Positions 19,828-42,613 of a DNA stretch of 64,000 nt are shown in pieces. The notes beneath the pieces were generated by a model, which saw only the letters and a program-made list of their open reading frames with translations, had not been told where the DNA came from and did not search any database. Within the stretch, counting starts at the first letter, position 1, and every line of letters starts with the position of its first letter. Made by a program: the position numbers and the translations under genes. The stretch is taken from the IMG/VR virus record IMGVR_UViG_3300017991_000007, positions 1 through 64,000 of that record; one strand, 5' to 3'. The stretch comes from a virus.

Positions 19828-20181
19828 ATGACATTTTTTGAATGGCTTTTACGTCCGTTACTTAGGTGGGCTGCGAAAGTGAGAGAGAAAGCGTATGAGG
19901 ATATGCTGCGGGGTTTATCTGAGGCTGAGTTGCAGCAAGTCAAGGAATGGCAGGATACCCGTGAAAAGGTTTTCCTCAAGTACAAGCACGGTGATCTTAA
20001 ATGGCGTGATACTCTTGGTTTGCGCTACTGTGATATGCTGAGTCCGATTGAGCAAAAGCGGTTTTCGACTCTTAATGATGTAGAACTTATATTCCGCAAT
20101 GAGCGGCTTAGACTACAAAGGATGGAAATAGATGGATATTGTCGTACCGGGCAAGAAACCAGTGCAAATGCCCAAGTGTAA
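19828..20181 (+). CDS. Hypothetical protein
   Basis: AGGAG RBS. Confidence 0.55.
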   Translation: MTFFEWLLRPLLRWAAKVREKAYEDMLRGLSEAELQQVKEWQDTREKVFLKYKHGDLKWRDTLGLRYCDMLSPIEQKRFSTLNDVELIFRNERLRLQRMEIDGYCRTGQETSANAQV

Positions 20182-20317
20182 GATTTGTGGATATCCAAAC
20201 ACTCTTATTGAAATGAGCTATCCGGGTATGTGTGGTAAGCAGCGGAAAAGGCGGCAATACGTTTGCACACGGGATGGTTGCTCAAACCGTGAAAGATACC
20301 GGATTCACCTTAAATAA
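20132..20317 (+). CDS. Small Zn-ribbon protein
   Basis: CKIC...CTRDGC. Confidence 0.45.
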   Translation: MDIVVPGKKPVQMPKCKICGYPNTLIEMSYPGMCGKQRKRRQYVCTRDGCSNRERYRIHLK

Positions 20318-20380
20318 ACTTGACAAGTCTCTAATGTGTTGTTAAATTGGTTAGATGAAACGACACGAAAGGAGCTTAAC

Positions 20381-20866
20381 GTGGAAAGTCAATTAATAGC
20401 AGTTGAAGGGGATCATCCCCTTGCAAAACTTTTGGAAAAGATGGTAGGGGGTAGAAAGCCCAAACACGTAAAACCTGAATTTGAGCGGGTACCGGATAAT
20501 GAGCTATTCGGTTTTCTTATGCACCTATATGACCAAGAGAGGTCTTTGCCGATACGTCTTGCACTGGCAAAATGCTGCGTTTGCGGGGTACCGGTTGACC
20601 CTCATAAGCAGACTTGCTCGGTTTGCAACTACTTTACCTCACTGCCCGCAATGGATGAGCGGGATTTGGTACTCAAGGAATTCGAGGGCAAGCGTCTTGA
20701 GCCTGAGACACCGGATGATGAGGGCTGCAACTGCCCCGCTTGTCAATTGAGAGACAAAATGCGTAACGGGGAGCCTTTTGATGAGGCTGATAAGGCATTG
20801 TTGACTGAATTGATGAGTCAGGGTCCACCTTTCCGCTTGGATGAGGATGAGGATGAGCGAGAATAA
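20381..20866 (+). CDS. Zn-finger hypothetical protein
   Basis: Promoter at 20320; AAGGAG RBS; CCVC/CSVC/CNCPAC. Confidence 0.6.
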   Translation: MESQLIAVEGDHPLAKLLEKMVGGRKPKHVKPEFERVPDNELFGFLMHLYDQERSLPIRLALAKCCVCGVPVDPHKQTCSVCNYFTSLPAMDERDLVLKEFEGKRLEPETPDDEGCNCPACQLRDKMRNGEPFDEADKALLTELMSQGPPFRLDEDEDERE

Positions 20867-21188
20867 GACACAACCGCCGGATGGTGAAAGGACGGGCATA
20901 CGGGTAGTTTCACAACCAAGCCCGGATGAATCAGAACTTTTAGAGCTATTCAAAGAGGTCGGTACGGATACCAAGGGGGAAAGTGCTGAGTTTTTCCGTT
21001 GGTATTCATGGCTGACTAACGCACACGTTGGAACCAGTTTCGTATCTGTTGACAAGGCTTTTGAGTTCATTAACACGCTGGCAGCGTTGATTCCAACTAA
21101 GCTTTACCGGTTGCCGGACATTGATCTTAATGCGGAAACACCCGAAACCCCTACCTATACTCTGGCAGACAAGACCTACAAGCACTGA
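20853..21188 (+). CDS. Hypothetical protein
   Basis: Coupled ORF. Confidence 0.5.
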   Translation: MSENKTQPPDGERTGIRVVSQPSPDESELLELFKEVGTDTKGESAEFFRWYSWLTNAHVGTSFVSVDKAFEFINTLAALIPTKLYRLPDIDLNAETPETPTYTLADKTYKH

Positions 21189-21197
21189 GGTTGATCC

Positions 21198-21623
21198 ATG
21201 TTTGATGCTACCTCTAATGACTTGATTTTTACTTTTGCGGATGGTTGGACAATACCGGCAAAGCTGAAATCGTTGGAACAGCACATGGATTCCCCGATTG
21301 AATACCGAGAGGGCGGTATATCAATAGCTATGCGTTTTCCGGGTCGCAGGGAGATTAATCTTACGGTTTATATGGAGGCTGCGGATGCTGCGGGTTGGCA
21401 AGAGCGTGTCAATTCGCTGGATAATTATAAAGCGGATGCGGTGTACGGTGATGCGGTACTGCATGGCTGTTGGCCCAAGAGTGTGCAAGTTGATATGGCT
21501 TGGGATGCGGCTGAGGTAGAGATTATCTCAGATTCGCTTATAGAGCCGCCTGAGATACCAGCGGTCAACTTGACTATTAAACCGGAGCGTCCGACAATGG
21601 CTAGAGTTCGTTTGATTGAATAA
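21198..21623 (+). CDS. Tail-tube (gp19)-like degenerate protein with C-terminal tag
   Basis: IEYREGG...FPG, GCWPKS; ends PTMARVRLIE. Confidence 0.6.
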   Translation: MFDATSNDLIFTFADGWTIPAKLKSLEQHMDSPIEYREGGISIAMRFPGRREINLTVYMEAADAAGWQERVNSLDNYKADAVYGDAVLHGCWPKSVQVDMAWDAAEVEIISDSLIEPPEIPAVNLTIKPERPTMARVRLIE

Positions 21624-21634
21624 AGGAGTACGTC

Positions 21635-22120
21635 ATGTATTGGCTGATAAAGTGCCTTTGGAAGCGAACAGCGGCAAGCAAGAGGGGTTATCCGAACCAG
21701 TGGCACAACAAAGACTTTAGAAATCGGGATACGCTTTTCCTGCGGATGCGGAAAGGCTCTTGGATGGATAAGTTCTTAGCGTGGGCAAGTATGAGTGGTA
21801 CGACTTACGGAGATTTGGTAGCCGTCCGAAATGACAGGTGGCACAAGGTCACTGCTTGCGACGGGGGCAATCCGCACTCCAAGTTTGTGATACATGAAAT
21901 GGTACATCATATGCAGTGTGAGAGGCGATTGACTTATGGAATGCAAGCGATTGCATATACCCTTGAGTGGGGTTGGAGGTGGGTTGCCGCCCTTTTCGGA
22001 AAGCAGACACACGCCCGGTACGATAACAAGTATGAGGTGGAAGCTTGGAATAAAGCCGGTCAAGATATCCGGGATTGGAAAGCCGATGGTCTTGATCCGA
22101 AACGCCCGTGGGTGATCTAA
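21635..22120 (+). CDS. Zincin-like (DUF4157-type) protein
   Basis: IHEMVHHMQ ... NKYEVEA. Confidence 0.6.
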   Translation: MYWLIKCLWKRTAASKRGYPNQWHNKDFRNRDTLFLRMRKGSWMDKFLAWASMSGTTYGDLVAVRNDRWHKVTACDGGNPHSKFVIHEMVHHMQCERRLTYGMQAIAYTLEWGWRWVAALFGKQTHARYDNKYEVEAWNKAGQDIRDWKADGLDPKRPWVI

Positions 22121-22401
22121 TGAAAGGCTTGCGGTATTTTGGTCATTTCAGGACACCGGCTGAGGCGATAAAGCATATCAAGTTTGTTGGTGAGGATTTG
22201 ATGCCGGGTGATTGGTTCTATAGTAAGCGGAATGGAGAGGCTTATATTTGGGACGGGGGAAACTGGATACTTATGCTTGGCAGTACCGGGGAGCCGCAGC
22301 CGATTTTCAGAAAAAAGGAGGGTAGATTCATGGAGGTCTATGAGGTCAATTACGATTTGCCGGGTAATACCCCAATGGCTGAGGTAAGGACTATTGAGTG
22401 A
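22120..22401 (+). CDS. C-terminal-tag family protein
   Basis: Ends TPMAEVRTIE. Confidence 0.65.
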   Translation: MKGLRYFGHFRTPAEAIKHIKFVGEDLMPGDWFYSKRNGEAYIWDGGNWILMLGSTGEPQPIFRKKEGRFMEVYEVNYDLPGNTPMAEVRTIE

Positions 22402-22633
22402 CTTCGACAAGAAAGAGGCCATGCGTGATCCGGGTATTGTGGGGATAGTTTCTCGCACCCTTGCACGGCATACCCATGTAACAGGTACGCCGGACCCGCT
22501 GAGTCCTGAGAAAGTTGCTGAGTGGGATGGTATGAGCAAAGTGAGGCAAGGGGATATAAAGCTGCCTAAAGGGGTTTACTATTGGGTGGGTGACTTCGAT
22601 TGCCCGATTGCAAAAGTAAGGACCATAGAATGA
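22394..22633 (+). CDS. C-terminal-tag family protein
   Basis: Ends CPIAKVRTIE; HTH tripeptide as in spike tips. Confidence 0.65.
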   Translation: MSDFDKKEAMRDPGIVGIVSRTLARHTHVTGTPDPLSPEKVAEWDGMSKVRQGDIKLPKGVYYWVGDFDCPIAKVRTIE

Positions 22634-22995
22634 GCAAACTACCAAAAGGTACGATAGTTACCAAGACGAAATTTGGGTACAAGCCTTATGTGGAATATCC
22701 GAGTATGGGGAATACTCATATCAATACATTGCAGGATTTGAAAGATTTTCTTGATGAGGTTGCCGCTGAGTATCTTTACAAACCAGCTACCAATGAACTG
22801 ATAAACCAAATCTACAGACGAATCAAAGCCGCCGTACCCGCTACCTTGGGGGTAAGGGTCAACCTGACAAGAGGTGGAAACGTCCGGGTTGAATTTGAGG
22901 GTGCTGAGGAAACCTTTGGTTGCTCCAATGACGATATGAAATACTTTTTCAGTGACCTTTCGTTTGACGTGGCAACCGTGCGGTGTATCCAATAA
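22630..22995 (+). CDS. C-terminal-tag family protein
   Basis: Ends FDVATVRCIQ. Confidence 0.65.
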   Translation: MSKLPKGTIVTKTKFGYKPYVEYPSMGNTHINTLQDLKDFLDEVAAEYLYKPATNELINQIYRRIKAAVPATLGVRVNLTRGGNVRVEFEGAEETFGCSNDDMKYFFSDLSFDVATVRCIQ

Positions 22996-23077
22996 AAAAA
23001 AAATGCCCGGTATGGGTACCGGGGCTTTGGAAGGGAATATGTGAATGGGTTTTTGTAGGCTTTATTCGTTTTTCAAT
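22995..23077 (-). ncRNA. Putative ~80-nt small RNA or empty promoter cassette
   Basis: Operator promoter (23084-23134) followed directly by a terminator at 23005-23024; no ORF between. Confidence 0.45.
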
Positions 23078-23083
23078 GATGCC

Positions 23084-23200
23084 ATTCTAGCAAGGCAGTA
23101 AAGCCTTGTCAAGTAAAAAATGCAATCAATTGCACTTTTTTTCAAAATAGTTTTTAACCCCTTGATTTTAGTTGACAATTCATAAAAGCAGTGTTAAGTT
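23084..23200. promoter_or_regulatory. Operator with divergent promoters
   Basis: TGTCAA 23107-12, TGCAATCAATTGCA 23121-34, TTGACA near 23172. Confidence 0.75.
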
Positions 23201-23206
23201 TCTTTT

Positions 23207-23482
23207 ATGGATGCGAAAAGATATAATCAAACGCCGTGCATAGGGTGTGGGTATTGTTGCCAAACCCCTTGCGTATTGGCTTTGCAGACTTACGGGATAG
23301 ACCGGCTCAAGAAAGAGCGTTGCCCGTCATTAAGGTGGGATGGTAAAAGATGGTTCTGCCAGCTTGCAGAAACGTCTGAGAGGGTCCGTAAAGACCTTTG
23401 GATAGGTGCGGGTTGTTGTTCTGCCTTAAATACCAATAGGAGAGAGAATAGACCTATTAAGCCGTGGGAATTTGGAAAATGA
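23207..23482 (+). CDS. Cys-cluster (CxxCxxCC) protein
   Basis: CIGCGYCC...CP.L...FC...GCC. Confidence 0.6.
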   Translation: MDAKRYNQTPCIGCGYCCQTPCVLALQTYGIDRLKKERCPSLRWDGKRWFCQLAETSERVRKDLWIGAGCCSALNTNRRENRPIKPWEFGK

Positions 23483-23844
23483 CTTTAAGCGGCCTCAGAA
23501 AGAAGGATAGGGATTTTGTCTTGGACCTCAAGGATTTCCTTGAGTACGAGTTGCAGAATTACGTTGTGAGGCGTTTTCAGCAAGGCGTGAATATCCTGAA
23601 TAAGCTCATATGCCAAAAAATGGAAAAGAAAATGGGTAAGGCGTATGCTATTCATAAATGGAGTTGGCAGATAAAAGAGCATCAAGGGTCGGACGTACCG
23701 GCTCATTCGCTTGGATTCCATTTGATTATATTTCCACCTAAGCCGTCACCCCTTACGTCATTCGTAGTTTCGATTGGAAAGCCGGGTTTTGAGTTTCCTT
23801 GGCCGGATCATATCGTTAAGGCAAAAGTGCGGTGTATCGCATGA
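23479..23844 (+). CDS. C-terminal-tag family protein
   Basis: Ends IVKAKVRCIA. Confidence 0.65.
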   Translation: MTLSGLRKKDRDFVLDLKDFLEYELQNYVVRRFQQGVNILNKLICQKMEKKMGKAYAIHKWSWQIKEHQGSDVPAHSLGFHLIIFPPKPSPLTSFVVSIGKPGFEFPWPDHIVKAKVRCIA

Positions 23845-24164
23845 AGCTACCCATAATATTTCCGAATCAGAATGAGAAAATAGTCCATGACTTTCGCAAG
23901 GCGTTGTCTGAGGATGAGTATTTCAATGCCTCTAAAACTTCTAAAGAGGCTAAAGAGTCTGCCTTTGGGTTTGCGAATAAATACTTGCCGAAAGGGTGGA
24001 CTTTTAATGTTAGAGATTTGGCCGGGTGGGGAGATACGGTCAAGATTCAGGTGAATTTGCAGCCGCCAAGAGGGAAGGAAATCTATACTGTAGAGGCGGT
24101 CTTGCTCATTGATGACGGGGTGTACCCGCCGCCTCTGGCAACGGTAAGGCTGGTTGGAAAGTGA
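23841..24164 (+). CDS. C-terminal-tag family protein
   Basis: Ends PPLATVRLVGK. Confidence 0.65.
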   Translation: MKLPIIFPNQNEKIVHDFRKALSEDEYFNASKTSKEAKESAFGFANKYLPKGWTFNVRDLAGWGDTVKIQVNLQPPRGKEIYTVEAVLLIDDGVYPPPLATVRLVGK

Positions 24165-24610
24165 TTGAACCACGCATAACCAAAGAGAAATTAGAGCATT
24201 TTCAGCGGACTATTGTGGATTTTCACCGCAGCAAGCTCATTATCTATGATCCCCAATACGAGTTTTATGATGCTACCCGTCAATTCTATGTTTGCACCGA
24301 TTATGATAGCTATCTAAGAAGGATTTACCGTGGATCAAAGCAGACAGATGCCGTTGTGTGGGCTGCTTTCGCTGAGGCTAAGATTCGGATGGTTGTCTTT
24401 ACCCCTATTCTCAAGTGCGCTTTGGACCGGCTTAGAAAAAAGACCCCTCGTAGGTCTAATGATCCGGTCTTTTTGAGTATGGTCCAGCTTGATACTCCTA
24501 CTATCCGAAAGTTTGAACATGCTTGCGCTCAAGGTAGTGTTTTGGGGCTTTGGGAAACGATGACCCGTGATCCCGCTCCGTTGCTTGCCCGTGTAAGGTT
24601 GGTAGGATGA
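24161..24610 (+). CDS. C-terminal-tag family protein
   Basis: Ends PLLARVRLVG. Confidence 0.65.
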   Translation: MIEPRITKEKLEHFQRTIVDFHRSKLIIYDPQYEFYDATRQFYVCTDYDSYLRRIYRGSKQTDAVVWAAFAEAKIRMVVFTPILKCALDRLRKKTPRRSNDPVFLSMVQLDTPTIRKFEHACAQGSVLGLWETMTRDPAPLLARVRLVG

Positions 24611-24945
24611 GTAGTATAACGGAAAGGCGATACAACCGCATAAAGAAAAAGCTATACGATGCCCTTGAGTACGATATGCCATTGCTCCATGATGAGAAAC
24701 AGGGGCAGGATGAGGTATATAGAACAATCAAAAGCGTTTTGAAATCTCCGAGTACGTGGGACGTTAAAGTGTGGGTAAACAAAACGGTCCAACCGGCATT
24801 AAAGCAACCGGGTATGTTCTATTATTGTGCAAAACTGCGGGTTTTGGGAACGCCGGATGAGGTTCATTTGAATATAGTAGCCGCTCAAGGGGGAGGTAGA
24901 GATATCAAGGAATTGCGGTTGGCAAGAGTGAGGTGTATTGCCTAA
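24607..24945 (+). CDS. C-terminal-tag family protein
   Basis: Ends LRLARVRCIA. Confidence 0.65.
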   Translation: MSSITERRYNRIKKKLYDALEYDMPLLHDEKQGQDEVYRTIKSVLKSPSTWDVKVWVNKTVQPALKQPGMFYYCAKLRVLGTPDEVHLNIVAAQGGGRDIKELRLARVRCIA

Positions 24946-25241
24946 TGGATAAAGTTGTGGTTGATGGATTCAGGCAATTATTGAAAGACGCTATGCGGGA
25001 ATGTATGAGGATCAAGGGTATCGACTCCCCCAATAAATTTGATGATACTGCTTTGGACTTTATTCAAAATGCGTTGGAAAGGCACCTATGGCCTCAGTAT
25101 GAGGTATCGGTGCGGGTTTATAGGGGAGTATTTGAGGCTAAGATAATCCATGTTGATAATAATGAGGTAGAATGGCTTTGGCCGTATTTGGATATGCTGA
25201 TTTATAGTAAGGAGTTGGCAGTGGTAAGGACAATACAATGA
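24945..25241 (+). CDS. C-terminal-tag family protein
   Basis: Ends ELAVVRTIQ. Confidence 0.65.
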   Translation: MDKVVVDGFRQLLKDAMRECMRIKGIDSPNKFDDTALDFIQNALERHLWPQYEVSVRVYRGVFEAKIIHVDNNEVEWLWPYLDMLIYSKELAVVRTIQ

Positions 25242-25486
25242 TTAAACCAATGAAAATAGTGTTTTGGTCTTTTTCCTTCGGAACCATGTTGATCATCGTT
25301 TTAGTGATTATGCTGCTACTTTTACCGGTTTCTATACCCTCAGATGCGGTAAGTGCAACCGATTGCACTGAAAACATAACTGTCAATCCGTGCCATGACT
25401 GCCCGCCGCCGGGTCTGAGGTGGCAAACACCCGAAACTCCAAGGATGCCCCAAGTAGAGCCGCCTTGGAAGGAAAGGAGAGAGTGA
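25238..25486 (+). CDS. Small membrane protein
   Basis: N-terminal hydrophobic helix. Confidence 0.5.
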   Translation: MIKPMKIVFWSFSFGTMLIIVLVIMLLLLPVSIPSDAVSATDCTENITVNPCHDCPPPGLRWQTPETPRMPQVEPPWKERRE

Positions 25487-25855
25487 ATGTACGAATACAA
25501 AGCCCGTGTGGTTAGAGTAGTTGACGGGGATACAATGGACGTATCCATTGATCTTGGTTTTGGGGTTTACAAAAGGGAGCGGATAAGGCTTGCGGGGATC
25601 AATACCCCTGAGACTTTCGGAGTCAAGAAAACAAGTGATGAATACGCCGCAGGAATGGCTGCTAAGGAGTTCGTACAATCGGTCTGCCCCGTTGATTCAA
25701 TCATCGTTATTCGCACCGATAAGGACAAACAGGGCAAGTATGGCCGGTACATTGCCTATGTGTTCTACCATGATTCAGGGGGTGACGAACCAAATCACTT
25801 GTGCCTGAATGAAACACTGCTTGCAGCCGGTCATGCGGAAAAGGTGGATTACTAA
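25487..25855 (+). CDS. Thermonuclease (SNase) family protein
   Basis: RVVDGDT, RIRLAGINTPE, GKYGRY. Confidence 0.9.
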   Translation: MYEYKARVVRVVDGDTMDVSIDLGFGVYKRERIRLAGINTPETFGVKKTSDEYAAGMAAKEFVQSVCPVDSIIVIRTDKDKQGKYGRYIAYVFYHDSGGDEPNHLCLNETLLAAGHAEKVDY

Positions 25856-26355
25856 TGAATGAAAGAGTCTTAGGGGATGTTACGGGTGACGGACCCCAAT
25901 ACATGACGTTGGTGTTTCCCTACGATTCAACGGGGATTCTCCTTGGCATGAAAAAAGAGGGATTCGGTAAAGGGCGTTGGAATGGTTTTGGAGGCAAGGT
26001 AAAGGAGGGAGAGCAATTAAAGGATGCTGCTGTACGAGAGTTGAAAGAGGAATGCGGCTTGGAAGCTTCCCCGGATGATCTTGTAGAGGCTGGAATCCTG
26101 AATTTCTATCCATATTATTGTGTGGTATTCGTGTATGGGTATAGGGTTAAGGGTGACTTGAGGCAGGAAAGACCCGTGGAAACGGAGGAAATGATACCAC
26201 GCCGGTTTGCTAATGAGGAAATACCTTTTGATCAAATGTGGGCCGATGATTCATATTGGCTCCCCTTGTTTTTGAAAGGTATCCCTTTTGTTGGAGAATT
26301 TCATTTTAACGGGGATGATTCAGTTAGAGAATGGTCCTTAGAGGGTATGCCGTGA
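25855..26355 (+). CDS. NUDIX hydrolase (8-oxo-dGTPase/MTH1-like)
   Basis: GFGGKV..GE....AAVRELKEECGL; IPFDQMWADD. Confidence 0.9.
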   Translation: MNERVLGDVTGDGPQYMTLVFPYDSTGILLGMKKEGFGKGRWNGFGGKVKEGEQLKDAAVRELKEECGLEASPDDLVEAGILNFYPYYCVVFVYGYRVKGDLRQERPVETEEMIPRRFANEEIPFDQMWADDSYWLPLFLKGIPFVGEFHFNGDDSVREWSLEGMP

Positions 26356-26376
26356 AGTAGGAAAGGTGGATTATTA

Positions 26377-26883
26377 ATGAGGCGATATTGGGCTTACTTG
26401 AAAGTGGTTTTGAGGCACAAATACTACGTTTACAAGGCGTGTCGGATAATGAAAGTGCCTTGGTGGATTGCGGTAGTCCATGATTGGCGCAAGTTCCTAC
26501 CGAGAGAGTTTATCCCATACGCTCACAACTTCTACAATGCGGACGGCTCCAAGCGTACTGTTCGGGATAAAACCGGTGCCTACGACCCTGCGGCTCAAGC
26601 AAATGCGTTTCAGCTTGCATGGCTGGATCATCAACGGGCAAGGCACCATTGGCAAGCTTGGTGCGTGATAGGTGACGGCGGTAAGCTGAGTCCAATGACG
26701 ATGCCGGAAATCTTTGTGAGGGAGTTGGTTGCCGATTGGATGGGAGCGGGGGCTGCTTACGACAATTACAGTCCGCAGGGTTGGTACAAAGCAAATAAAG
26801 ATTCTTTGGTTGTTACCCCGTCAACTACGATGCTCATTGAGCGATTGTTGCAGGATGAGGTACCGGTAGAGAATCCTTTTTAG
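26377..26883 (+). CDS. DUF5662-like HD-type protein
   Basis: HK..V, HDW.KF.P.EF, AW..H.....HHWQ.W, ADW. Confidence 0.7.
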   Translation: MRRYWAYLKVVLRHKYYVYKACRIMKVPWWIAVVHDWRKFLPREFIPYAHNFYNADGSKRTVRDKTGAYDPAAQANAFQLAWLDHQRARHHWQAWCVIGDGGKLSPMTMPEIFVRELVADWMGAGAAYDNYSPQGWYKANKDSLVVTPSTTMLIERLLQDEVPVENPF

Positions 26884-26892
26884 GGGGTAGAA

Positions 26893-27147
26893 ATGGCTAA
26901 GTATCGAAAGAAACCCGTTGTCATTGAGGCGTGGGAGTTTGGCTCCGGTACGCCTAAGCCTGAATGGTTGCAAAAGGCTTTTGATGAGGGAGTGATAGCG
27001 CATGATGGTCCTTTGCTCAAGGTCAAGACGCTTGAGGGAGAAATGAGTGCCTTTCCGGGCAGCTTTATCATTCAGGGAATCAAGGGAGAAATCTACCCTT
27101 GTGAGGCTGAGATATTTGAGGCTACTTATGAGCATGTTGACGATTAA
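26893..27147 (+). CDS. Conserved phage protein (YRKKPVVIEA family)
   Basis: KYRKKPVVIEA...TLEG...G.FII.G.KGE.YPC...IF..TYE. Confidence 0.75.
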   Translation: MAKYRKKPVVIEAWEFGSGTPKPEWLQKAFDEGVIAHDGPLLKVKTLEGEMSAFPGSFIIQGIKGEIYPCEAEIFEATYEHVDD

Positions 27148-27343
27148 AGCCGTGGATATCTATTACGGGGAGCATAGTCCAAGGTGGCAATATGACTGCT
27201 TTAGGTGCAAGTTTGGTTGGTCATGTGGTATGACGTGTGAGTGTGTGTTGCGAACATTCCTGATAGGAAAGATGCCGCCCGCTGAGAGGCAACAGCAAGT
27301 GAATGAGGCACTAATCTCAGCGGGCTTGGAGCCTGAGTTTTAG
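27128..27343 (+). CDS. Hypothetical Cys-containing protein
   Basis: CFRC...C...CEC. Confidence 0.45.
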   Translation: MSMLTIKAVDIYYGEHSPRWQYDCFRCKFGWSCGMTCECVLRTFLIGKMPPAERQQQVNEALISAGLEPEF

Positions 27344-27561
27344 GGTTTTCCCTGAGAATGTTTGTTGGTCTGCCTTTTGTTCGGCACGGTACCGATATCA
27401 GCATAGGTCCGGCGGTAGCGCACTCTTGCTTTTTCCAAGGCTCCTACCAGATTCACGCCTTGAACGCCCCGGACACCCTCATAGCCCTTTTTGCCTTGTT
27501 CCCGTACTTGCCGGTCCCTGAATCGTACCTTAGCGCATGGGTTTTTCTTTGGTCCTGCCAT
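27340..27561 (-). CDS. Small basic protein
   Basis: AGGAG RBS; K/R-rich; last gene of the MAKG operon. Confidence 0.65.
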   Translation of the reverse strand: MAGPKKNPCAKVRFRDRQVREQGKKGYEGVRGVQGVNLVGALEKARVRYRRTYADIGTVPNKRQTNKHSQGKP

Positions 27562-27572
27562 TGTATCTCTCC

Positions 27573-27908
27573 TTATTCCGGTACCGGTGTGGGGAATCCC
27601 CCCGGCGGTAAAGTGTTTAGCTTACTTTCAAGCCTTATATTCGAGTCACGCAATTGCTGTAATATCGCAGTTTGCGCTTTCTGGTTCTCTTGAACATCAT
27701 CCATTTCAATGCGGTAGATATCCTCATCAACCTTTGTATCGCCAAGCTCTTTCACGTCCGTTTGTAGGTTTTCAATCGCATGGTCCCTATCTGAGTTGAC
27801 GAAATCGGAGATAAAGATGATTGCGGTGCCAATGGCTACGATACCAACGGCAACAGCCACTATCTTGCTCCAAAGCGGGAAAGGTGTTTTCTCTCCATTT
27901 TTTGTCAT
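27573..27908 (-). CDS. Membrane-anchored coiled-coil protein
   Basis: Single TM helix then coiled coil. Confidence 0.65.
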   Translation of the reverse strand: MTKNGEKTPFPLWSKIVAVAVGIVAIGTAIIFISDFVNSDRDHAIENLQTDVKELGDTKVDEDIYRIEMDDVQENQKAQTAILQQLRDSNIRLESKLNTLPPGGFPTPVPE

Positions 27909-27920
27909 GGCTCAAGTCCT

Positions 27921-28589
27921 TTAGGTAATAGTACGTCTGCCTACCCTTGGTCCTTGCGGTGCTGCGGGTGTGGGGGTCGGTGTTCTCAGCGGACCTCTCA
28001 TACCGGCTACCACTTGTCTCATATCTATTGTACCCCATTGTGAGGCGGCTGGAAATGTGCCGTCCCTATGGATATTCCGAATACGGTTATCCAGATTGTT
28101 GACCCGGTTTACTATGCGGTCATTTTGGGCTATGAGCCGTTGCCTTTGGCCCGGTGTGGTACCTCTGGCATTTGCGTTGGCAATAACCCTATCCTGTTGC
28201 TGGATAAGACGGCGGCGTTGGTTGATGAGGGTTTGGGCTTGCCTATCCCGTTGCTGGACTGCCATTTGCGTAATATTACGTCTGGTTTCATGCCCACGCT
28301 GCCTTATTCGTTGATCCGCATTCAGCCTCACACCCTCAATCGCTGTAGCGGCTCTTTGGGAGTCAACTCCCCACCTGAATATCGTTTGGGTGGGTAGTCT
28401 GGTTGCAGCAAGTTCCTTAGCAATCCTTACTTGGTTTTGCTCGCTGAGATTGGAGCGTCCTAAATCCATCATATCAAGACTGCCTAAGAGTCTTTGGTGT
28501 TCCCTAACTATGTTTTCAACGGGAGTTGGTTCTATAATAGCAACAGCCCCGCCGCCCGCTGCGCCTCCACCTGATCTGCCTTTAGCCAT
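27921..28589 (-). CDS. MAKG-leader Arg-rich protein
   Basis: MAKGRSGGGAAGGG; R/Q-rich. Confidence 0.8.
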   Translation of the reverse strand: MAKGRSGGGAAGGGAVAIIEPTPVENIVREHQRLLGSLDMMDLGRSNLSEQNQVRIAKELAATRLPTQTIFRWGVDSQRAATAIEGVRLNADQRIRQRGHETRRNITQMAVQQRDRQAQTLINQRRRLIQQQDRVIANANARGTTPGQRQRLIAQNDRIVNRVNNLDNRIRNIHRDGTFPAASQWGTIDMRQVVAGMRGPLRTPTPTPAAPQGPRVGRRTIT

Positions 28590-29239
28590 TATCTACCTCC
28601 AATAACTCGACTACGTTCTACTGCAAGACTGAGTAATTCAACACGCCGTCGCATATCGTTTTGCGCCCCTGAAAGCCTAAAGTTGCCCTCATTCCGCATG
28701 GTAGCTGCTATTTTGGTTTCGGATGCTCTTGCGGCTGCTAGTCTGCGTTCAAGTTGTGCCGTGGGAAATGTCCGGGCAAGGCCGTCCGCTATTGGTGAAT
28801 TACCCCTGAAAGGCGGTGGAATGCTCCCAATTCTTGTGCTTCTATTCCACATACTATTACTCACACCGTCTGGTATGGTTGTTAGGTTGCGTTGACGGGT
28901 TGACAGTACGCCGATTGTCTCTGCGGGCGGTCTTGCTCTTGATGGTAAAGGTCGTGATCCGCTGCCTTGAAGGGGAGCGGTTGGTGCGTGTTCTACGAGT
29001 ATGCCCCGTTGCCGTGCGCCTTGGAGTGGACCGGACTTGGAGCGTTGTGCGGCAAGCTCTCTGGTTCGCCATTCAGCTACCTGTGTGTTCATGGCTGAGA
29101 TTGCTCCCGGTGTATGTCCGGGGAACGGAAAGCGGGCCATGACTCGGTTTTCCTCATCATTGAGCATTGTGTTAATATCGTTGTTACTTAATGGGGCGGC
29201 TCCCGCTGCGGCTCCCCCTCCCGCTCTGCCTTTAGCCAT
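28589..29239 (-). CDS. MAKG-leader Arg-rich protein
   Basis: MAKGRAGGGAAAG. Confidence 0.8.
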   Translation of the reverse strand: MAKGRAGGGAAAGAAPLSNNDINTMLNDEENRVMARFPFPGHTPGAISAMNTQVAEWRTRELAAQRSKSGPLQGARQRGILVEHAPTAPLQGSGSRPLPSRARPPAETIGVLSTRQRNLTTIPDGVSNSMWNRSTRIGSIPPPFRGNSPIADGLARTFPTAQLERRLAAARASETKIAATMRNEGNFRLSGAQNDMRRRVELLSLAVERSRVIGGR

Positions 29240-29249
29240 ACTTTATCTC

Positions 29250-29765
29250 CTATTCCGGTTGAATGCGCCTTGCCGCAATCCGGTTTACGTCCCTGCGGGG
29301 AGTTGGCGGTGTTGGTGTGGTACCGGCGGGTCTATTTACTCTTTGACCTCTTAGAAACATCGTATCAGGGTTTGCGCCCCGGATTCGGATACCGGCTCTT
29401 TCCATATGCTCAAATTGTCTCTGCGTTGATCCAATGCGGGATATGCCTCCAATTGCGTTGACATATCGAATGCGGGCAACCTCTTGCTGCCCTAAAGCTC
29501 TATCCCGTGCGGCTCCGGTAAGTACGGATGCTCTTTGTTGCCGTCTGCGTATCTCATTTGCCATAGAAACGAGTCTATCAGCACTCCTAGCAGTGGACCG
29601 TAATTGGCGAATCTCATTGACGGCAAAGGCACGGTCAATCAAATCACCCCCGGTAGCATCCTGAATGGCAAGACGTAGGGCATCAATCTCATTATTAAGC
29701 TGTTCGTTGGTGATATCACCCATTCCGGCGGTTCCACCACTCCCGCCCGCACGTCCTTTAGCCAT
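29250..29765 (-). CDS. MAKG-leader Arg-rich protein
   Basis: MAKGRAGGSGG; ends RIAARRIQPE. Confidence 0.8.
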   Translation of the reverse strand: MAKGRAGGSGGTAGMGDITNEQLNNEIDALRLAIQDATGGDLIDRAFAVNEIRQLRSTARSADRLVSMANEIRRRQQRASVLTGAARDRALGQQEVARIRYVNAIGGISRIGSTQRQFEHMERAGIRIRGANPDTMFLRGQRVNRPAGTTPTPPTPRRDVNRIAARRIQPE

Positions 29766-29778
29766 TGGTTACTCCTTT

Positions 29779-30423
29779 TTACGTTGGCTCAATACGCCGT
29801 CTTGCGATTCTTTCAGCTTGTTGCCGGGTAGCTGCCCTTTGAGGTGTTTGGGTGAATAGTCGGTTGGTCGCTGCATTGGCAACGGCTTGTGCTTCCCTGC
29901 GGGATGCTCCTGCGTCCCTTGCAGCCCTGAAAGCGTCCGCTCTTACCACGTCACGGTTTGCTGCGGTGTTAGCACCAAAAGCCCGGAATGTCCGGTTGGC
30001 GGCTCTATCCGCTGCCCGGATAGCAACAGGCGGTGCGCCGGTAGCAGTTCTGGTTTGGGTGCGGCGGTCAAGGGCATTGAGAATGATCCCATTTCGGACT
30101 GAGTGTGACCGGGTAGCTCTCTGCCTCATTGGACCAATTCTTCTACCCGCAACCCTCATATCAACACTTTCTTGGACAAAATCTCTGGAAAGACGGCCAA
30201 TGGTGCGAAGGTTGGCACTGGATATGACGCTATCGGCAAGCCTATCAGCAAGGCGTTGGAGTTGGGTGACGCTGGTTACGTTCCCAAGGTCGTTAAAGCC
30301 TCCAAGTATCTGATTCACACGGTCTGTTGCCCACTCGACATTGCCAAGTCCTGCGGCTCTACCTATTGCAGCCTCAACGCCGCCGCCCCCTGCGGCCCCG
30401 CCGCCTGATCTACCCTTTGCCAT
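29779..30423 (-). CDS. MAKG-leader Arg/Ala-rich protein
   Basis: MAKGRSGGGAAGGGG; ends RIARRRIEPT. Confidence 0.8.
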   Translation of the reverse strand: MAKGRSGGGAAGGGGVEAAIGRAAGLGNVEWATDRVNQILGGFNDLGNVTSVTQLQRLADRLADSVISSANLRTIGRLSRDFVQESVDMRVAGRRIGPMRQRATRSHSVRNGIILNALDRRTQTRTATGAPPVAIRAADRAANRTFRAFGANTAANRDVVRADAFRAARDAGASRREAQAVANAATNRLFTQTPQRAATRQQAERIARRRIEPT

Positions 30424-30453
30424 GACACGCTCCTAGAGGGAGAAAGGTAACTG

Positions 30454-30630
30454 TTATCCAGTGATTCGTCTTGCGGCAATGCGAGCTACGTTAGCTGCGG
30501 TGCGGGCAATCCGTCCAACCCTTTGCCGGGTGGTTGGGGTTGCGGCTCTGGCAGGACGTACACGGACGGTCTTTTCCTTTTCGATAACAACGCCGCCCCC
30601 GGCTCCCCCGCCTTTTGCTCCTTTAGCCAT
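30454..30630 (-). CDS. 58-aa MAKG-leader basic peptide (missed by ORF track)
   Basis: AAGGAG RBS; MAKGAKGGGAGGGVVIEKEKTVRVRPARAATPTTRQRVGRIARTAANVARIAARRITG. Confidence 0.8.
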   Translation of the reverse strand: MAKGAKGGGAGGGVVIEKEKTVRVRPARAATPTTRQRVGRIARTAANVARIAARRITG

Positions 30631-30739
30631 GACTGACTCCTTATAAGTAGTGATTTGTCAAAGCACAATACAATCTGTGCGCTCTTAAAGTATAGAATAT
30701 TGGGCAAGCCGTGGCAAGCTCCTTTTGGTGGGGAAAAGG

Positions 30740-30771
30740 AAAGCCCCCTACCATACGGCAAGGGGCTTTTC
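30740..30771 (-). terminator. Terminator hairpin
   Basis: AAAGCCCC...GGGGCTTTT. Confidence 0.55.
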
Positions 30772-30785
30772 AGTGGGGTAAGCTC

Positions 30786-31244
30786 TTAGGCTTTGGCGGG
30801 GTCCGGGTACTTTGAGCCGGGTATTTTGACCTCATAGGATTTAAGGTCATTTGGCAAGTCTTTCCAATCGGGTAGGCTATTGCCAGTATCGGACCATTGC
30901 ACCCTTACGGTACCGTCCTGCATGATTGTCAGCTTATACACATAAGCCCAATCGGTATCCCTTAGACTCTCAAAGAGGTCGGTAGGATATCCACTATAAC
31001 CACTAGACCATCCTTGCGCCCAAAGTTCTGAGGTAAGCACCATCATAAGCTTACTTACCTCATTCACTATGTTGGCAGGGGGGTAGTAATCCTCATTCGA
31101 GTTGATAAGCTGAGGTATGCGCCTCTCAGCGAACCATTGCAGGAAAGCTCCCATACCCTCTAGGTATCCATCATGGTGATGATAGATAGCTTGGGGTGTG
31201 TCACCGTCATGGCTTTCGATTAAGATACAACACCGGGTACTCAT
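30786..31244 (-). CDS. Conserved phage hypothetical protein
   Basis: MSTR..I...IYHHHDGY..G.G motif; GGAGG RBS. Confidence 0.7.
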   Translation of the reverse strand: MSTRCCILIESHDGDTPQAIYHHHDGYLEGMGAFLQWFAERRIPQLINSNEDYYPPANIVNEVSKLMMVLTSELWAQGWSSGYSGYPTDLFESLRDTDWAYVYKLTIMQDGTVRVQWSDTGNSLPDWKDLPNDLKSYEVKIPGSKYPDPAKA

Positions 31245-31309
31245 ACTCTACCTCCATTGATTTGAATGTCAAAGATACACATACTATAACACTACTCTAT
31301 AGCCTTGTC

Positions 31310-32200
31310 AAGTATAAAGTGGGCAGGGCATACCCCCTATGTCACACGGCGCATAATATAAATAGAGTAGTGTGACGTGCAAACGATTGCACTCACATAG
31401 CCTATGAATCAAGGCCGGGTGGGGGTGGATCAAAGGCGGGGGGAAACCTATATTCAAGGGGTCGGGTCGCCAAGCAGTAGAGGGGTGGGGTAGTAGTACA
31501 ACACAACACACAAAGCACCTACTGTCCGTCCTCACACAACACAACATCGGGGGTACCCTATACGGTGTCCACACGTTGTCCACATTCAGCGCATCAAACC
31601 CTTGTCTAACCTTCAAATATGGACGGTAGGGGGGTACCATCATTTTTGGGTCAAAAATAAAAGTCCCTTTTCAGAAAGTAACCCTAAGCCTCATGCCGTA
31701 CAACTATAACGCACAGGACATTTTAAGTAATTAAAACAAGCACTTGCACACCCCCTCCCCCCAAAAATATAAGATACTATGAGATAAGGACACCCATTAT
31801 GGACACTATGGACATATAACCCCTGAAAAGCGGGTGGTAGGCTTGGATTTGGCTTAATTTGCCTAAAATATAAGCAGAAACGGGGGAGCTAAGGTGGTTT
31901 GTGACTATCGGTTGCACCTAAAATCTTGGGGTATGGACACTTTAATTTTCGGGGGTGTCCATATTTTTCGTTGGGGCTGACTTAGTTCCCGCCTTGTGTA
32001 TCGGAGCGGACAGTTTGCCTTTGTTTTCGCATACTTGGGGCTAAATACTTTCCACATATGGAGTTAGTCAGGGCTTTGGTGCAAAAAATATATTTCGTGG
32101 TCCACCAAATATATGTATCGTAAGTACCTGAAACAGTTAGGCTTTTTCGTTTCGAGCGTGTAAAGGGTCATCAAAAGGCTTTTTCGTGGTCCTCTTTTGC
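31310..32200. other. Long non-coding region between divergent blocks; candidate replication origin or genome terminus
   Basis: No credible ORF; repeated GGACAC/TGGACA in both orientations, CA-rich tracts, homopolymer runs. Confidence 0.45.
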
Positions 32201-32754
32201 CTTATACTCTATCTATGAACAAACCAGCATTTCAGCCGTCCCTACAACTCGCACAGGCAAGGGGCATGATCCAAGACACTCAGGGGCGGTTGTTTACCCG
32301 GATTGTCTGCCATAGCTCCAAAGCATGTAGCGGCTGTTGCCGGGAGAGTGCAAACGTGGTCCTCACCCCCGACGAACTCCCCGTCATCATGGACCTTGCC
32401 AGAATCCGAAATATTCCCACCCCGCTTGTAGAAACCAATGACGAACAGGGCTTGATTGTTATGGCCCCGCAGCATGGCCGGTGCGTTTTCTTTTCACCGA
32501 GCAAGAATACCTGTGTGATTCATAAGGACAAGCCCTTATTCTGCCAACTTTATCCGATATGGCTCACACCCAAAGGGCCAATCATCGACGTGTCCTGTCC
32601 CATAGGTGATTTCTTTCGCAATCTTCTAAGGTCAAGAGACAAGGAAATGCTCACACTACTCCAAGCCGCCCAAGACCTACTGACACTCTACCCCACGCTT
32701 GCGAGCGTCCAAACTAATGCAATCGCTTGCACTGATTCTGTTAATTCAGATTAA
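32197..32754 (+). CDS. YkgJ-family Zn/Fe-chelating Cys-cluster protein
   Basis: CSGCC...CVFF...CVIHKDKPLFCQLYP. Confidence 0.75.
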   Translation: MPYTLSMNKPAFQPSLQLAQARGMIQDTQGRLFTRIVCHSSKACSGCCRESANVVLTPDELPVIMDLARIRNIPTPLVETNDEQGLIVMAPQHGRCVFFSPSKNTCVIHKDKPLFCQLYPIWLTPKGPIIDVSCPIGDFFRNLLRSRDKEMLTLLQAAQDLLTLYPTLASVQTNAIACTDSVNSD

Positions 32755-32808
32755 TCTTGACAAGCCCTTATAGTATTGTTATATTGTGCATTGAAAGGGG
32801 GTAGCTAA

Positions 32809-33204
32809 ATGAAATTTGTATTCCATGATTCTTGTTATTACTGCGGGGATGAGGTAGAGGCTGAGTTTCACCAATATGAAGTAACCCGAATGCAAGTTGG
32901 TACGGCTCTTATGTCAAAGGGGTGGGAACAATGTATTAATGCGTCCGGGTGGGACGTATGGAAATGCCCAAAGTGCCAAAAAGCGGAAAGTGAGGCAACG
33001 GTGAAATTACTTGTAGAGTGGCAACCATATGATGAGGCACCTCAGAAAAGTCAAATTAAGGTCAAGGATAAAAACAATACCGCTGAGGTAAAGAAAGCTT
33101 TGTATGCGGATTACATGGAGTCCGGCGGGTTGTCTGAGGATGATATGGATGGATTTACCCCGGATACTTTCGTAACCATTCTGGAAATGTGGGAATTAAA
33201 GTGA
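32809..33204 (+). CDS. Zn-ribbon hypothetical protein
   Basis: CYYC...CPKC; promoter at 32757 and GGGGGTAGC RBS. Confidence 0.6.
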   Translation: MKFVFHDSCYYCGDEVEAEFHQYEVTRMQVGTALMSKGWEQCINASGWDVWKCPKCQKAESEATVKLLVEWQPYDEAPQKSQIKVKDKNNTAEVKKALYADYMESGGLSEDDMDGFTPDTFVTILEMWELK

Positions 33205-33461
33205 CGGTCAAAATCCACAACCATGAATCTTGCCCCAAGTGCGGGTATGATTTTCAGAAATTGGCAGACCCCGTGTACGTCAAAGATATGTGTCCTTTCT
33301 GCGGTTGGCCGAATAAACCGAAAGCGATAGGGGAATTTGGTAAGACGGTTTTCATGGACGGGGGTAGAGCTTTTCCTGCGGATATCCTTGAGGGTATGGC
33401 TGAGAAATACGATAAGATGGTCAATAATCCACCAATGGCTAAAGCTAAAACGATTTGTTGA
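33201..33461 (+). CDS. C-terminal-tag family protein (Zn ribbon plus scaffold/protease-like fragment)
   Basis: CPKC/CPFC; DGGRAFP..ILEGMAEKYD; ends PPMAKAKTIC. Confidence 0.6.
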   Translation: MTVKIHNHESCPKCGYDFQKLADPVYVKDMCPFCGWPNKPKAIGEFGKTVFMDGGRAFPADILEGMAEKYDKMVNNPPMAKAKTIC

Positions 33462-33471
33462 GAGGTCTTGA

Positions 33472-33765
33472 GTGTACCTGAAATTCACCGGCAAAGATAA
33501 AGGCTCTTGGAAAATTGGATCATCGGTTTTCTGCTACAAGAACGGTGACGCTTTTCCTATGGGTAAGGTCATTGCTATCCATGAAAAAGAGGTATCAGTG
33601 GGTATCCGCTTTGTGTTTACCGCTGAGATAGAGCTTGCCTATTGGGGGGAAGCTTTGAAAATGGCAGATGGTTGTGAAAAGCTTTTTGAAAACGCCGGTC
33701 AAAAAATTTGGGTGGATATTGATCCTGAATGCCCGGAAATCGCTGAGGTACGGAGCATATGCTGA
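33472..33765 (+). CDS. C-terminal-tag family protein
   Basis: Ends PEIAEVRSIC. Confidence 0.65.
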   Translation: MYLKFTGKDKGSWKIGSSVFCYKNGDAFPMGKVIAIHEKEVSVGIRFVFTAEIELAYWGEALKMADGCEKLFENAGQKIWVDIDPECPEIAEVRSIC

Positions 33766-34157
33766 CTCACAAACAGCTTATGAAAGTTGCCGGTATTCGG
33801 ACTAGGACTGAGGCGGTAGAGAAATTGGCTGAGGGTAAGATAGGGGTTGATATGGGTATCAAAAAGAGAATTCCTTGGCTGAAAATCGACACCAAGAAAT
33901 ACAAAATCCGGGCTTGGAGTGATCCTAAAACCGGAATCCCTACGAGATATAGATTCACGGTAATTGACAAGGAATTGGTTAAGGTCGTACCGGCCTCAAA
34001 GGTTTTTCTGAATAGTGTTTGTGTGCTTGATGCAATGAGCAATAGACCCGTAACCGGGGCAGATATGGAGTGGAATGCCTACTCCCCCAATAGCCCGGAC
34101 TTGGATGTAGAGATAGATTTTAGACCGCTGCTTGCTCAAGTCCGATTAATTTCTTGA
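33759..34157 (+). CDS. C-terminal-tag family protein
   Basis: Ends PLLAQVRLIS. Confidence 0.65.
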   Translation: MLTHKQLMKVAGIRTRTEAVEKLAEGKIGVDMGIKKRIPWLKIDTKKYKIRAWSDPKTGIPTRYRFTVIDKELVKVVPASKVFLNSVCVLDAMSNRPVTGADMEWNAYSPNSPDLDVEIDFRPLLAQVRLIS

Positions 34158-34188
34158 CACTCCCTAAAAGTGTTGTTATATTATAGAT

Positions 34189-34375
34189 AGTTGCCCGTGG
34201 TAGCCGATGACCGGAGAGAGGCGGGGCAAGGACCGGGGAAACTCGCTACTGCATTGATAAGACGCTTACCGATGATAGCGGTGGACGCGCTGCTTAGTGG
34301 TAAGAAATGCCCTATGTCACGGGGTAAGGTCGCAACCGGTATTATGCGACCTTCGTTTAAGCCCCCACGGGTACC
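34189..34375 (+). ncRNA. Putative ~185-nt structured RNA
   Basis: TTGACA-17-TATATT promoter; 5' GCCCGTGG pairs with 3' CCACGGGT; internal AAGGTCGCA/TGCGACCTT stem. Confidence 0.5.
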
Positions 34376-34396
34376 TTAAATTTTCATAATGGAGGT

Positions 34397-34795
34397 TTGA
34401 AAATGGATGAGCTTAAAAAGGTGCGGGATAGGCTTGCTGAAATGCTCTATGCGTTGGATGAGTTGGTTACAAACCGAGCCGGGGTTAATTCTACAATAGA
34501 TAGGAAAAATATTTCCGTTGCCGGTGTTCCAATTTTTGAAAATGCGCTTAAAGAGCCGGGGGTGGGAGCCGTTTTTATGCTTACGGATAATGAAAGCCGT
34601 TTCACTCTTTCGGAAACCGGGGAAATGCAACTGTTTTCCGATAAAAAGAGCTATGCGACAAGATGGAATAGGTTTGAAATGGCTCATTATATCAGGGTTG
34701 GAATCAAGTCTTGCTTAGAGCGTATGTGCGAAGTTGCCGGATATCCGGTCAAAGAATTCACTTTTGCTAAATTTGTGGGGAATGTAGAGGATTGA
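34397..34795 (+). CDS. Hypothetical protein
   Basis: GGAGG RBS. Confidence 0.6.
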   Translation: MKMDELKKVRDRLAEMLYALDELVTNRAGVNSTIDRKNISVAGVPIFENALKEPGVGAVFMLTDNESRFTLSETGEMQLFSDKKSYATRWNRFEMAHYIRVGIKSCLERMCEVAGYPVKEFTFAKFVGNVED

Positions 34796-34826
34796 TTTTG
34801 CGATTTAGCTGAGTTTTTAGGAGAGA

Positions 34827-35021
34827 ATGATGACGGTATGTGAAAAGAGCGATTGTCCTTATAATCTCCAAGGGGCTTGCCAAGCCGATTGGAAAGTTAT
34901 GGAAATCACCTCTGAGGGTGTTTTTTATTGTGCCACTGCAATGCAGCTTGACCGTAACGCAAACGTCAAAAGGTCACATAGCTTTGACACCCCAATTCTT
35001 GCTGAGATAGGAAAGAAATAA
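34827..35021 (+). CDS. Small Cys protein
   Basis: C....C.YN....C motif. Confidence 0.5.
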   Translation: MMTVCEKSDCPYNLQGACQADWKVMEITSEGVFYCATAMQLDRNANVKRSHSFDTPILAEIGKK

Positions 35022-35731: not shown

Positions 35732-35805
35732 GCGCTTATAGCTCAATGGTAGAGCAAGGGACTCTAAATCCCCGTGCATAGGTTCAAATCCTATTAAGCG
35801 CACCA
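35732..35805 (+). tRNA. tRNA with CUA anticodon (amber suppressor)
   Basis: GCGCTTA/TAAGCGC acceptor stem, GCTC/GAGC D stem, anticodon loop CTCTAAA, ATAGG-TTCAAAT-CCTAT T arm, encoded CCA. Confidence 0.9.
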
Positions 35806-41482: not shown

Positions 41483-41530
41483 TGTGCTATGATGTAAAAA
41501 TGTTTCACATGAAACAATTGGAGCTACCCA

Positions 41531-42418: not shown

Positions 42419-42444
42419 ATGAAAAGGTGTGTTATGATTTAGGT

Positions 42445-42530: not shown

Positions 42531-42613
42531 GAAAATTGTTTGCCAGCTAAAATAGTTCCTGCTATCATTATGTAGGTTATAACCGTTAATTTCTTTGCAA
42601 AGGAGTGAGGTAA

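Follow-up and report, generated by a model that had tools for sequence, protein, structure and literature searches.

Why should a dozen small phage proteins of otherwise dissimilar sequence end in one and the same peptide? This question is raised by the genome of an uncultivated myovirus with a contractile tail, which is available as the complete IMG/VR record IMGVR_UViG_3300017991_000007 of 106,648 bp with direct terminal repeats at its ends, and of which positions 1-64,000 constitute the window considered here. Twelve open reading frames (ORFs) on the + strand, encoding proteins of 79-149 amino acids (aa), terminate in (P)-x-h-A-x-V-R-x-[I/V]-x(1-2)-stop, in the following called the tag. A preliminary description of this DNA had claimed that 12 ORFs arranged in three runs share such a C-terminal end, and indeed every ORF and every ending is present at its reported stop. 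The motif is real and strictly terminal, the tag is maintained by purifying selection that acts at the peptide level, and the codons of its V-R pair have been recruited also as Shine-Dalgarno (SD) site of the overlapping next gene.

A strictly terminal motif in twelve small proteins

When all six-frame ORFs of at least 40 aa in the whole 106,648-bp genome were searched, the pattern A.VR.[IV] occurred 13 times, and 11 of these 13 occurrences are located 1-2 residues before the stop codon. All 11 terminal matches lie on the + strand, at 21198-25241 and 33472-34157, and the twelfth member (33189-33461) carries the variant tag AKAKTIC. Over the C-termini of 171 ORFs about 0.013 terminal hits are expected. 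The comparison with shuffled controls, which had been proposed together with the motif, yielded 0.013 hits on average and at most 1 for shuffled tails, and the Poisson probability of at least 11 terminal hits is ~4e-29. Scored with a position-specific scoring matrix, the 12 tags reach 22.6-27.0 bits, compared with 11.9 bits for the next best site of the genome. Furthermore, an unbiased search for C-terminal patterns returned A.VR and A.V..I as the top patterns of this genome. The same de novo search gave composition-driven patterns only in the nearest relative, G001 (86,920 bp, 82% complete), which was examined over its full length. A literature search found no description of the tag.

The 12 genes, named t1 to t12 in genome order, lie at 21-25 and 33-34 kb in an accessory region, outside the tail module (64-90 kb), and belong to operons with sigma70-type promoters. 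The first run consists of t1 (21198..21623, 141 aa, ending RPTMARVRLIE), t2 (22108..22401, 97 aa, NTPMAEVRTIE), t3 (22394..22633, 79 aa, DCPIAKVRTIE), for which a gene call is on record, and t4 (22630..22995, SFDVATVRCIQ), which has 121 aa when read from the ATG at 22630 and whose longest ORF begins at TTG 22600. Upstream of this operon a sigma70-type promoter with extended -10 is found at 20320..20348 (+; 10/12 matches in a consensus scan), and t4, at the operon end, is followed by a terminator-like hairpin (23006-23023). The second run comprises t5 (23464..23844, 126 aa, HIVKAKVRCIA), t6 (23841..24164, 107 aa, PPPLATVRLVGK), t7 (24161..24610, 149 aa, APLLARVRLVG), t8 (24607..24945, 112 aa, ELRLARVRCIA) and t9 (24945..25241, 98 aa, SKELAVVRTIQ). 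The third run, again preceded by a sigma70-type promoter with extended -10 (32757..32785, +; 11/12 matches), contains t10 (33189..33461), a protein of 90 aa with two zinc-ribbon-like Cys pairs and the divergent tag NPPMAKAKTIC, as well as t11 (33472..33765, 97 aa, CPEIAEVRSIC) and t12 (33759..34157, 132 aa, RPLLAQVRLIS). At this operon end another sigma70-type promoter with extended -10 (34154-34182) overlaps the t12 stop with its -35 box. With the hairpin after t4 and the promoter after t12, the earlier statement that the tag is kept at operon ends as well holds true. The tag genes are early-type and not virion genes; their location in sigma70-promoter operons of the accessory region argues against a loading of the tag proteins into the virion, one of the roles initially considered.

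A proline stands 2-3 residues upstream of the alanine in 8 of the 12 tags, and the I/V is followed by one residue in 10 of the 12 and by two in t6. Near the right end of the genome, a 150-aa ORF at 104954-105406 (+) terminates ESKIAKVKTI, with no residue after the isoleucine, and is possibly a degenerate thirteenth tag (10.4 bits).

As far as the sequence comparisons reach, the tag is lineage-specific and the tag proteins tested are without homologs. A comparison with related phages had been suggested as well, and here 38 TerL-related virus records contain a single instance of the tag-plus-stop DNA pattern, compared with 10-11 instances in this genome. A search of 5.8 billion proteins with t7 returned only t7 itself, and the phmmer hits of t1 among 1.84 billion representatives, to Sushi, Calx-beta and RTX repeat proteins, were rejected as spurious. 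No match was obtained by tblastn of t6, t7, t8 and t10 against 50,697 GenBank phage records, no homolog of any tag gene is present in G001, and no variant sequences are contained in the 90% clusters. Neither megablast of positions 20000-35000 together with single-protein scans of viral contigs nor a scan of genome contigs for prophage relatives found anything.

The phage encodes a portal, a virion protein and a tail fibre, and among its tail genes also tube, tape measure, baseplate hub and baseplate J. The closest TerL of a GenBank phage is at most 38% identical, so that there is no close cultured relative, and the nearest metagenomic relatives have TerL identities of 60-67%. The accessory region, which extends from the gene after TerL to the gene before the ribonucleotide reductase, covers ~36 kb in this phage (11981-48515) but only ~9 kb in the syntenic stretch of G001 (41303-50288), and nearly all surplus genes are ORFans. 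TerL itself ends in PTVAVRTFG, and the preliminary description had listed this as a near match. However, it is a coincidence and was rejected as a tag, since the ending is the TerL family's own K-P-x-V-x-V-x-[TV]-F-G, in which the arginine is absent from the relatives. Among the TerL homologs, P0010, P0037, P0056, P0058, P0071 and P0114 have ~1,000 aa instead of the usual ~610-680 aa. The intein-related Pfam domains PF14890 and PF14528 were found in some of these long homologs, which are probably intein-bearing terminases, and in the TerL of this phage there are none.

Selection on the peptide and a Shine-Dalgarno site in the same codons

The nucleotide information of the tag is 3-periodic and amounts, in bits per codon position, to 2.0/2.0/0.67 for Ala, 2.0/1.59/0.27 for Val and 1.35/2.0/0.54 for Ile/Val. 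The first two bases of the Ala (GCN) and Ile (ATH) codons do not vary while the third does, and the 12 tags draw on three codons for Ala, all four for Val, four for Arg and three for Ile; the V-R codon pairs quoted in the preliminary description were correct. Since variation at exactly the third positions is not expected of an RNA or DNA element, this pattern is due to selection on the peptide. Moreover, V-R is retained with codons that are not SD-like in t1 (GTT CGT) and t12 (GTC CGA), and it is present in t1, t4 and t12 though the next start does not overlap. At t1 both the SD (AGGAG) and the ATG of the next gene are located downstream of the stop.

At 8 of the 12 tags (t2, t3, t5-t9 and t11) the next start overlaps the stop in the form of ATGA, GTGA, TAATG and similar, and all eight carry the hallmark of translational coupling, an SD-like hexamer 5-9 nucleotides (nt) before a stop-overlapping start. 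Among these junctions GTA is used in 6/8 and AGG in 6/8, compared with genome-wide codon frequencies of 24% and 20%, respectively, so that TAAGG or GAGG stands 7-9 nt before the start; AGG is used in none of the four tags without an overlapping start. In t2, GTA AGG is the SD for the start of t3 (TTG 22394), and in t3 the same two codons stand 8 nt before the ATG at 22630 (ATGA overlap). The stop of t5 overlaps with the start of t6 by ATGA, that of t6 with t7 by GTGA, that of t7 with t8 by ATGA, that of t8 with t9 by TAATG, and that of t9 by ATGA with the start of a hydrophobic protein of 82 aa. In t11, GTA CGG AGC (containing GGAG) precedes the ATG at 33759. In t10, the SD of the next gene (GAGG) lies downstream of the stop, and this is the single tag in which V-R is changed to A-K. 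The same six bases encode a conserved dipeptide and a ribosome-binding site, and the peptide is retained even where the SD is not needed. It had been proposed that selection acts on the peptide and not on an overlapping ribosome-binding site. The first part stands, given the 3-periodic conservation and the non-SD codons for V-R in t1 and t12, whereas the second part has to be corrected, as the ribosome-binding site is a second constraint overlaid on the first one.

Protein bodies and possible readers of the tag

What kind of proteins carry the tag? The 12 tag-less bodies show a mean Smith-Waterman z of 0.18 among each other, compared with 0.12 when they are aligned with small control ORFs from this genome, and 5/66 pairs among the bodies are above z=2 compared with 6/72 with the controls. 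Hidden Markov models (HMMs) built in a leave-one-out manner from the five most similar-looking proteins (t4, t5, t6, t8 and t9) never retrieved the left-out member. The tag proteins have no family match in Pfam, PHROG or NCBIfam, with t10 scoring against Zn_Ribbon_1 at an E-value of 7.6e-4, below the cut-off. At the level of sequence, common descent is clearly indicated by only one feature, the hexapeptide DLKDFL, which t4 and t5 share with five synonymous differences. Additionally, a MAFFT alignment suggests a common penultimate strand and a turn ahead of the tag.

The AlphaFold2 (AF2) model of t6, made with no alignment, has a predicted local distance difference test score (pLDDT) of 82.3 and a predicted template modelling score (pTM) of 0.74. 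It consists of three helices, three strands, a Pro-rich loop of low confidence and the tag, which is modelled as fourth, terminal beta-strand (E101-106, pLDDT 83; preceding loop pLDDT 58). Among 48,161 PDB representatives the best structural matches of t6 are the gp25-like protein 2ia7 (Z 8.5, root mean square deviation 2.6 over 89 residues) and IraD (6od1_B, Z 7.6), both with Z of middling size, and they are followed by gp25 proteins of type VI secretion systems (T6SS) and phage baseplates and by sheath domains. Foldseek, run with t6 on PDB and BFVD, returned nothing at E<=0.001. For t8 an ESM Atlas model (pTM 0.61) was used, whose nearest neighbours, at template modelling (TM) scores of 0.55-0.63, belong to the clusters Phage_sheath_1C, GPW_gp25, Sheath_initiator, Mu gp46 and DUF2634. 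Of the 12 proteins these two were assessed for similarity to the gp25 and sheath C-terminal "handshake" fold class, and both models resemble it over most of the domain with middling scores. The AF2 model of t2 is poor (pLDDT 59.6, tag region <50) and shows beta-alpha-beta3 in an order unlike that of t6, and t12 is also modelled poorly in the ESM Atlas.

The HMMs PF04965, PF17482 and PF10934 matched 0/12 tag proteins even at E up to 10. The genuine gp25 (79868-80443) and tail sheath (67018-69789) of this phage do match their family HMMs. A sheath-C profile compared with the tag proteins by hmmsearch and hhalign gave nothing, and neither did blastp of gp25 and sheath against them. Since t6 and t8 seem to share one fold class, some of the tag proteins probably belong to one paralog family that has diverged. 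According to the models of t6, t8 and t2 and the Cys pairs of t10, the tag is carried by at least three body architectures, namely gp25/sheath-C-like (t6, t8), beta-alpha-beta3 (t2) and zinc ribbon (t10). The initial view that the bodies are largely unrelated can therefore be upheld for their sequences, which are similar only at control level, but not for the fold of t6 and t8. Likewise, the idea of a variable domain with a constant terminal beta-strand agrees with at least three architectures and with the strand in the confident model of t6, but needs to be restricted, as part of the set is probably paralogous.

How is a constant end on such different bodies to be explained? We tentatively favour, with slightly less than even confidence, that 12 small early proteins share a C-terminal beta-strand which is read by one acceptor via beta-sheet augmentation. 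The terminal strand would be a common recognition or docking plug on several different body domains, at least two of them gp25/sheath-handshake-like and others of beta-rich and zinc-ribbon types, and one acceptor could read all body types by beta-sheet augmentation. In isolation the strand may fold back onto the own sheet of the protein, as in the model of t6. A recognition element is favoured because the motif is identical at four positions while the rest has diverged beyond detection and has more than one architecture, which is unlike an ordinary core strand. As acceptor, a host docking site for protein quality control of the ClpX N-domain type is the first-ranked candidate, and a gp25/sheath handshake-type sheet is the second-ranked one, which might belong to the phage itself, to the tag proteins or to the contractile machine of a competitor. 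One form of the docking reading, quite improbable in itself, would make the tag a portable tether by which a dozen early domains dock on the ClpX N-domain, either as degradation adaptors that each deliver a different host protein to ClpXP or with the tag as a common timer degron.

Several points weigh against docking on a common acceptor. No partner protein was found for the tag, and its likeness to the ClpX-binding tail of SspB is low in information, with an estimated ~8 bits. The tag occurs in a single phage lineage only, and the searches returned no homologs of the proteins tested. In the t6 model, the only confident one, the tag is packed into the own sheet of the protein and could therefore be purely structural. 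Moreover, the XBR-like C-terminus of RssB proved to be integral to its fold and not a docking site (PMC7226468). Finally, the most alike tags sit on adjacent genes (t2/t3 and t6/t7), and t4 and t5 share 12 identical nucleotides in their tags in addition to DLKDFL, which fits tandem duplication.

The last three points speak at the same time for the main rival, namely that the genes form a single fast-evolving paralog family which arose by tandem duplication, with the tag as last strand of a gp25/sheath-C-like fold that serves folding or self-association and has no external reader. The independent resemblance of t6 and t8 to one fold class, the arrangement of the genes in arrays and the penultimate strand hinted at by MAFFT agree with it as well. 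However, we consider it unlikely, since the zinc ribbons of t10, the different order of secondary structure in t2 and the length of t3, which with 79 aa is short for the fold, do not fit one family, the similarity of the bodies is not above control level, and a merely structural strand would hardly stay identical at four positions amid a diverged core. Improbable is also that the tag mimics the XB tail of SspB, so that the proteins would be tethered for timed degradation or would act as adaptors bringing host targets to ClpXP. The XB peptide RGGRPALRVVK-COOH of SspB binds the ClpX N-domain (PMC3983244, PMC8808172), the tags share its core h-R-x-[VI]-x-COOH, which is followed by one residue and directly preceded by Pro/Ala, and the tag genes are early. 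A phage-encoded adaptor-like protein acting on ClpCP is known with Gp53 of SPO1 (PMC6873191), and the likeness of t6 to IraD, an anti-adaptor of the ClpXP pathway, points in the same direction, but this likeness is weak and follows from the gp25 fold. The low-information match, in which Pro and Ala are off register by 1-2 residues, and the packing of the tag in the t6 model argue against such mimicry, no prophage relatives in genome contigs point to a host, and RssB demonstrates that a likeness of this kind can mislead (PMC7226468).

With still less confidence, the tag might be regarded as a sheath-type donor strand that plugs a handshake sheet, be it in gp25 or sheath of the phage, in the tag proteins, in a host tailocin, in a T6SS or in a rival phage, and thereby caps, decoys or decorates it. 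This would suit a myovirus with its own sheath and gp25, the resemblance of t6 and t8 to gp25 and the sheath C-terminal domain, and the position of the tag after a loop, which matches that of the sheath terminal arm. The sheath of this phage even ends GGAIVTEI, fitting A.V..I, but that of G001 ends GGVVAVNEL, so that the likeness is not conserved. Moreover, the tag proteins go undetected by sheath-C profiles, their early-type genes are located away from the tail module, the fold comparisons reach middling scores only (Z 7.6-8.5, TM 0.55-0.63), and other tagged bodies have different folds. Very improbable, finally, is that the tag is a mere by-product of translational coupling, i.e., a junction cassette inherited with each gene and encoding a functionless peptide. 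Such a cassette would explain why GTA AGG or G(A/C)GG precedes the overlapping start by 7-9 nt at 8/12 junctions, why GTA and AGG exceed their genome-wide frequencies there, why the fixed distance from tag to stop matches SD spacing, and why t10, with its SD downstream, has lost V-R. However, no RNA role explains Ala and Ile codons that are fixed at positions 1-2 and free at position 3, and V-R persists in t1, t4 and t12 although no start overlaps there, in t1 and t12 with non-SD codons that are reached only by synonymous changes.

Gene neighbourhood and comparison with known systems

Among the neighbours of the tag genes, the untagged gene of the first run (21635..22120, +), which overlaps the start of t2, encodes a protein of 161 aa with the zincin-like HExxH sequence HEMVHHMQ. 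Searches of Pfam, NCBIfam and PDB returned no match for it, and solely by its position it is a candidate for a tag-associated peptidase. Two genes for Cys-rich proteins are adjacent to tag runs: a PF03692 CxxCxxCC protein is encoded upstream of the third run (32197-32754, +; E 1.4e-8), and the first gene of the operon of the second run (23207-23482, +) encodes a 91-aa protein (CIGCGYCC...) with no Pfam hit. Both adjacencies may or may not be meaningful. The 82-aa protein that is translationally coupled to t9 (25238-25486, +) has a long hydrophobic N-terminal segment and is therefore likely a membrane protein, and downstream of it SNase, NUDIX and DUF5662 genes are located. The interval between t4 and the next operon contains, on the minus strand, a strong sigma70-type promoter (23112-23084; extended -10, 11/12 matches) that is directed towards a good terminator (T8 after the hairpin 23023-23006), and the two would yield a transcript of ~60-70 nt with no ORF. 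Between the second and the third run, at 27921-30630 (-), five tandem genes encode basic proteins that all begin with MAKG(R/A)xGGG. Three of the five terminate in R-I-A-[AR]-R-R-I-x, an ending which, as in I-A-A-R-R-I-T-G compared with L-A-R-V-R-L-V-G, resembles the tag only loosely and in a different register. Additionally, a tRNA with the anticodon CUA, thus of the amber suppressor type, is encoded at 35732-35805 (+); ARAGORN labels it tRNA-Pyl, and it scores 72.6 bits against Rfam tRNA. The large genes are open under table 11, so that no recoding is evident despite this tRNA, and the TAG stop is used by 0/12 tag genes.

The case is statistically unambiguous, with 12 early ORFan proteins, one peptide and direct evidence of selection at the codon level, and identifying the reader would assign a whole block of dark-matter genes to a shared pathway at once. 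Moreover, the tag could provide a small portable element by which proteins are recruited, or their stability is controlled, in the host. Independent of its function, the locus is a clear example of a 6-nt stretch that serves both as conserved dipeptide and as ribosome-binding site.

Cells and eukaryotic viruses offer well-known examples of short terminal peptides by which many dissimilar proteins are directed to a single reader. To our knowledge, such peptides have been documented in only few cases in phages, such as the capsid targeting sequence of T4, which is found at the N-terminus of the late or virion proteins IPI-III and Alt and is cleaved by the prohead protease. Like this sequence, the tag is a short terminal peptide shared as a putative address by otherwise unrelated phage proteins, but it is C-terminal, belongs to proteins of early operons and shows no evidence of a cleavage site. 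The binding motif of the bacterial sliding clamp, a pentapeptide of the QL[SD]LF type, was considered and rejected, since the tag contains neither Gln nor an aromatic residue and has an invariant Arg in its middle. The degron classes of ClpXP comprise the ssrA-like LAA and the basic C-motif 2 of the MuA type, a run of basic residues ahead of a hydrophobic end. There is no LAA in the tags, and AKVRTIE, AKAKTIC and AKVKTI show a basic-x-basic-x-I that recalls the MuA end only loosely. In contractile tails, the C-terminal arm of a neighbouring sheath subunit acts as donor strand and completes the handshake domain of sheath and of gp25/TssE (PF17482, PF04965). The tag is likewise a predicted terminal beta-strand on a linker that would complete a small alpha/beta sheet, and t6 and t8 resemble this fold. 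However, there is no sequence relation, the Arg of the tag is absent from the sheath arms considered here, and the tag genes are early, non-tail genes.

Gp53 of SPO1 and IraD are, as the tag proteins would be under the ClpX reading, small proteins of phage or phage-derived origin that redirect a host Clp protease, and IraD appears to share the fold class of t6 (Z 7.6), but each of them stands alone and is not part of a set with a common terminal tag. With the XB/XBR tail of SspB the tag has in common the extreme C-terminal position after a flexible linker, the core h-R-x-[V/I]-x-COOH and the upstream Pro/Ala. The two differ in that Pro and Ala are shifted by 1-2 residues, that the last residue of the tag is variable and not Lys, and that the tail of SspB belongs to one adaptor family, whereas the tag is found on 12 unlike proteins. 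The SspB tail attaches a variable binding domain to one hub, and it is the same arrangement that we propose for the tag.

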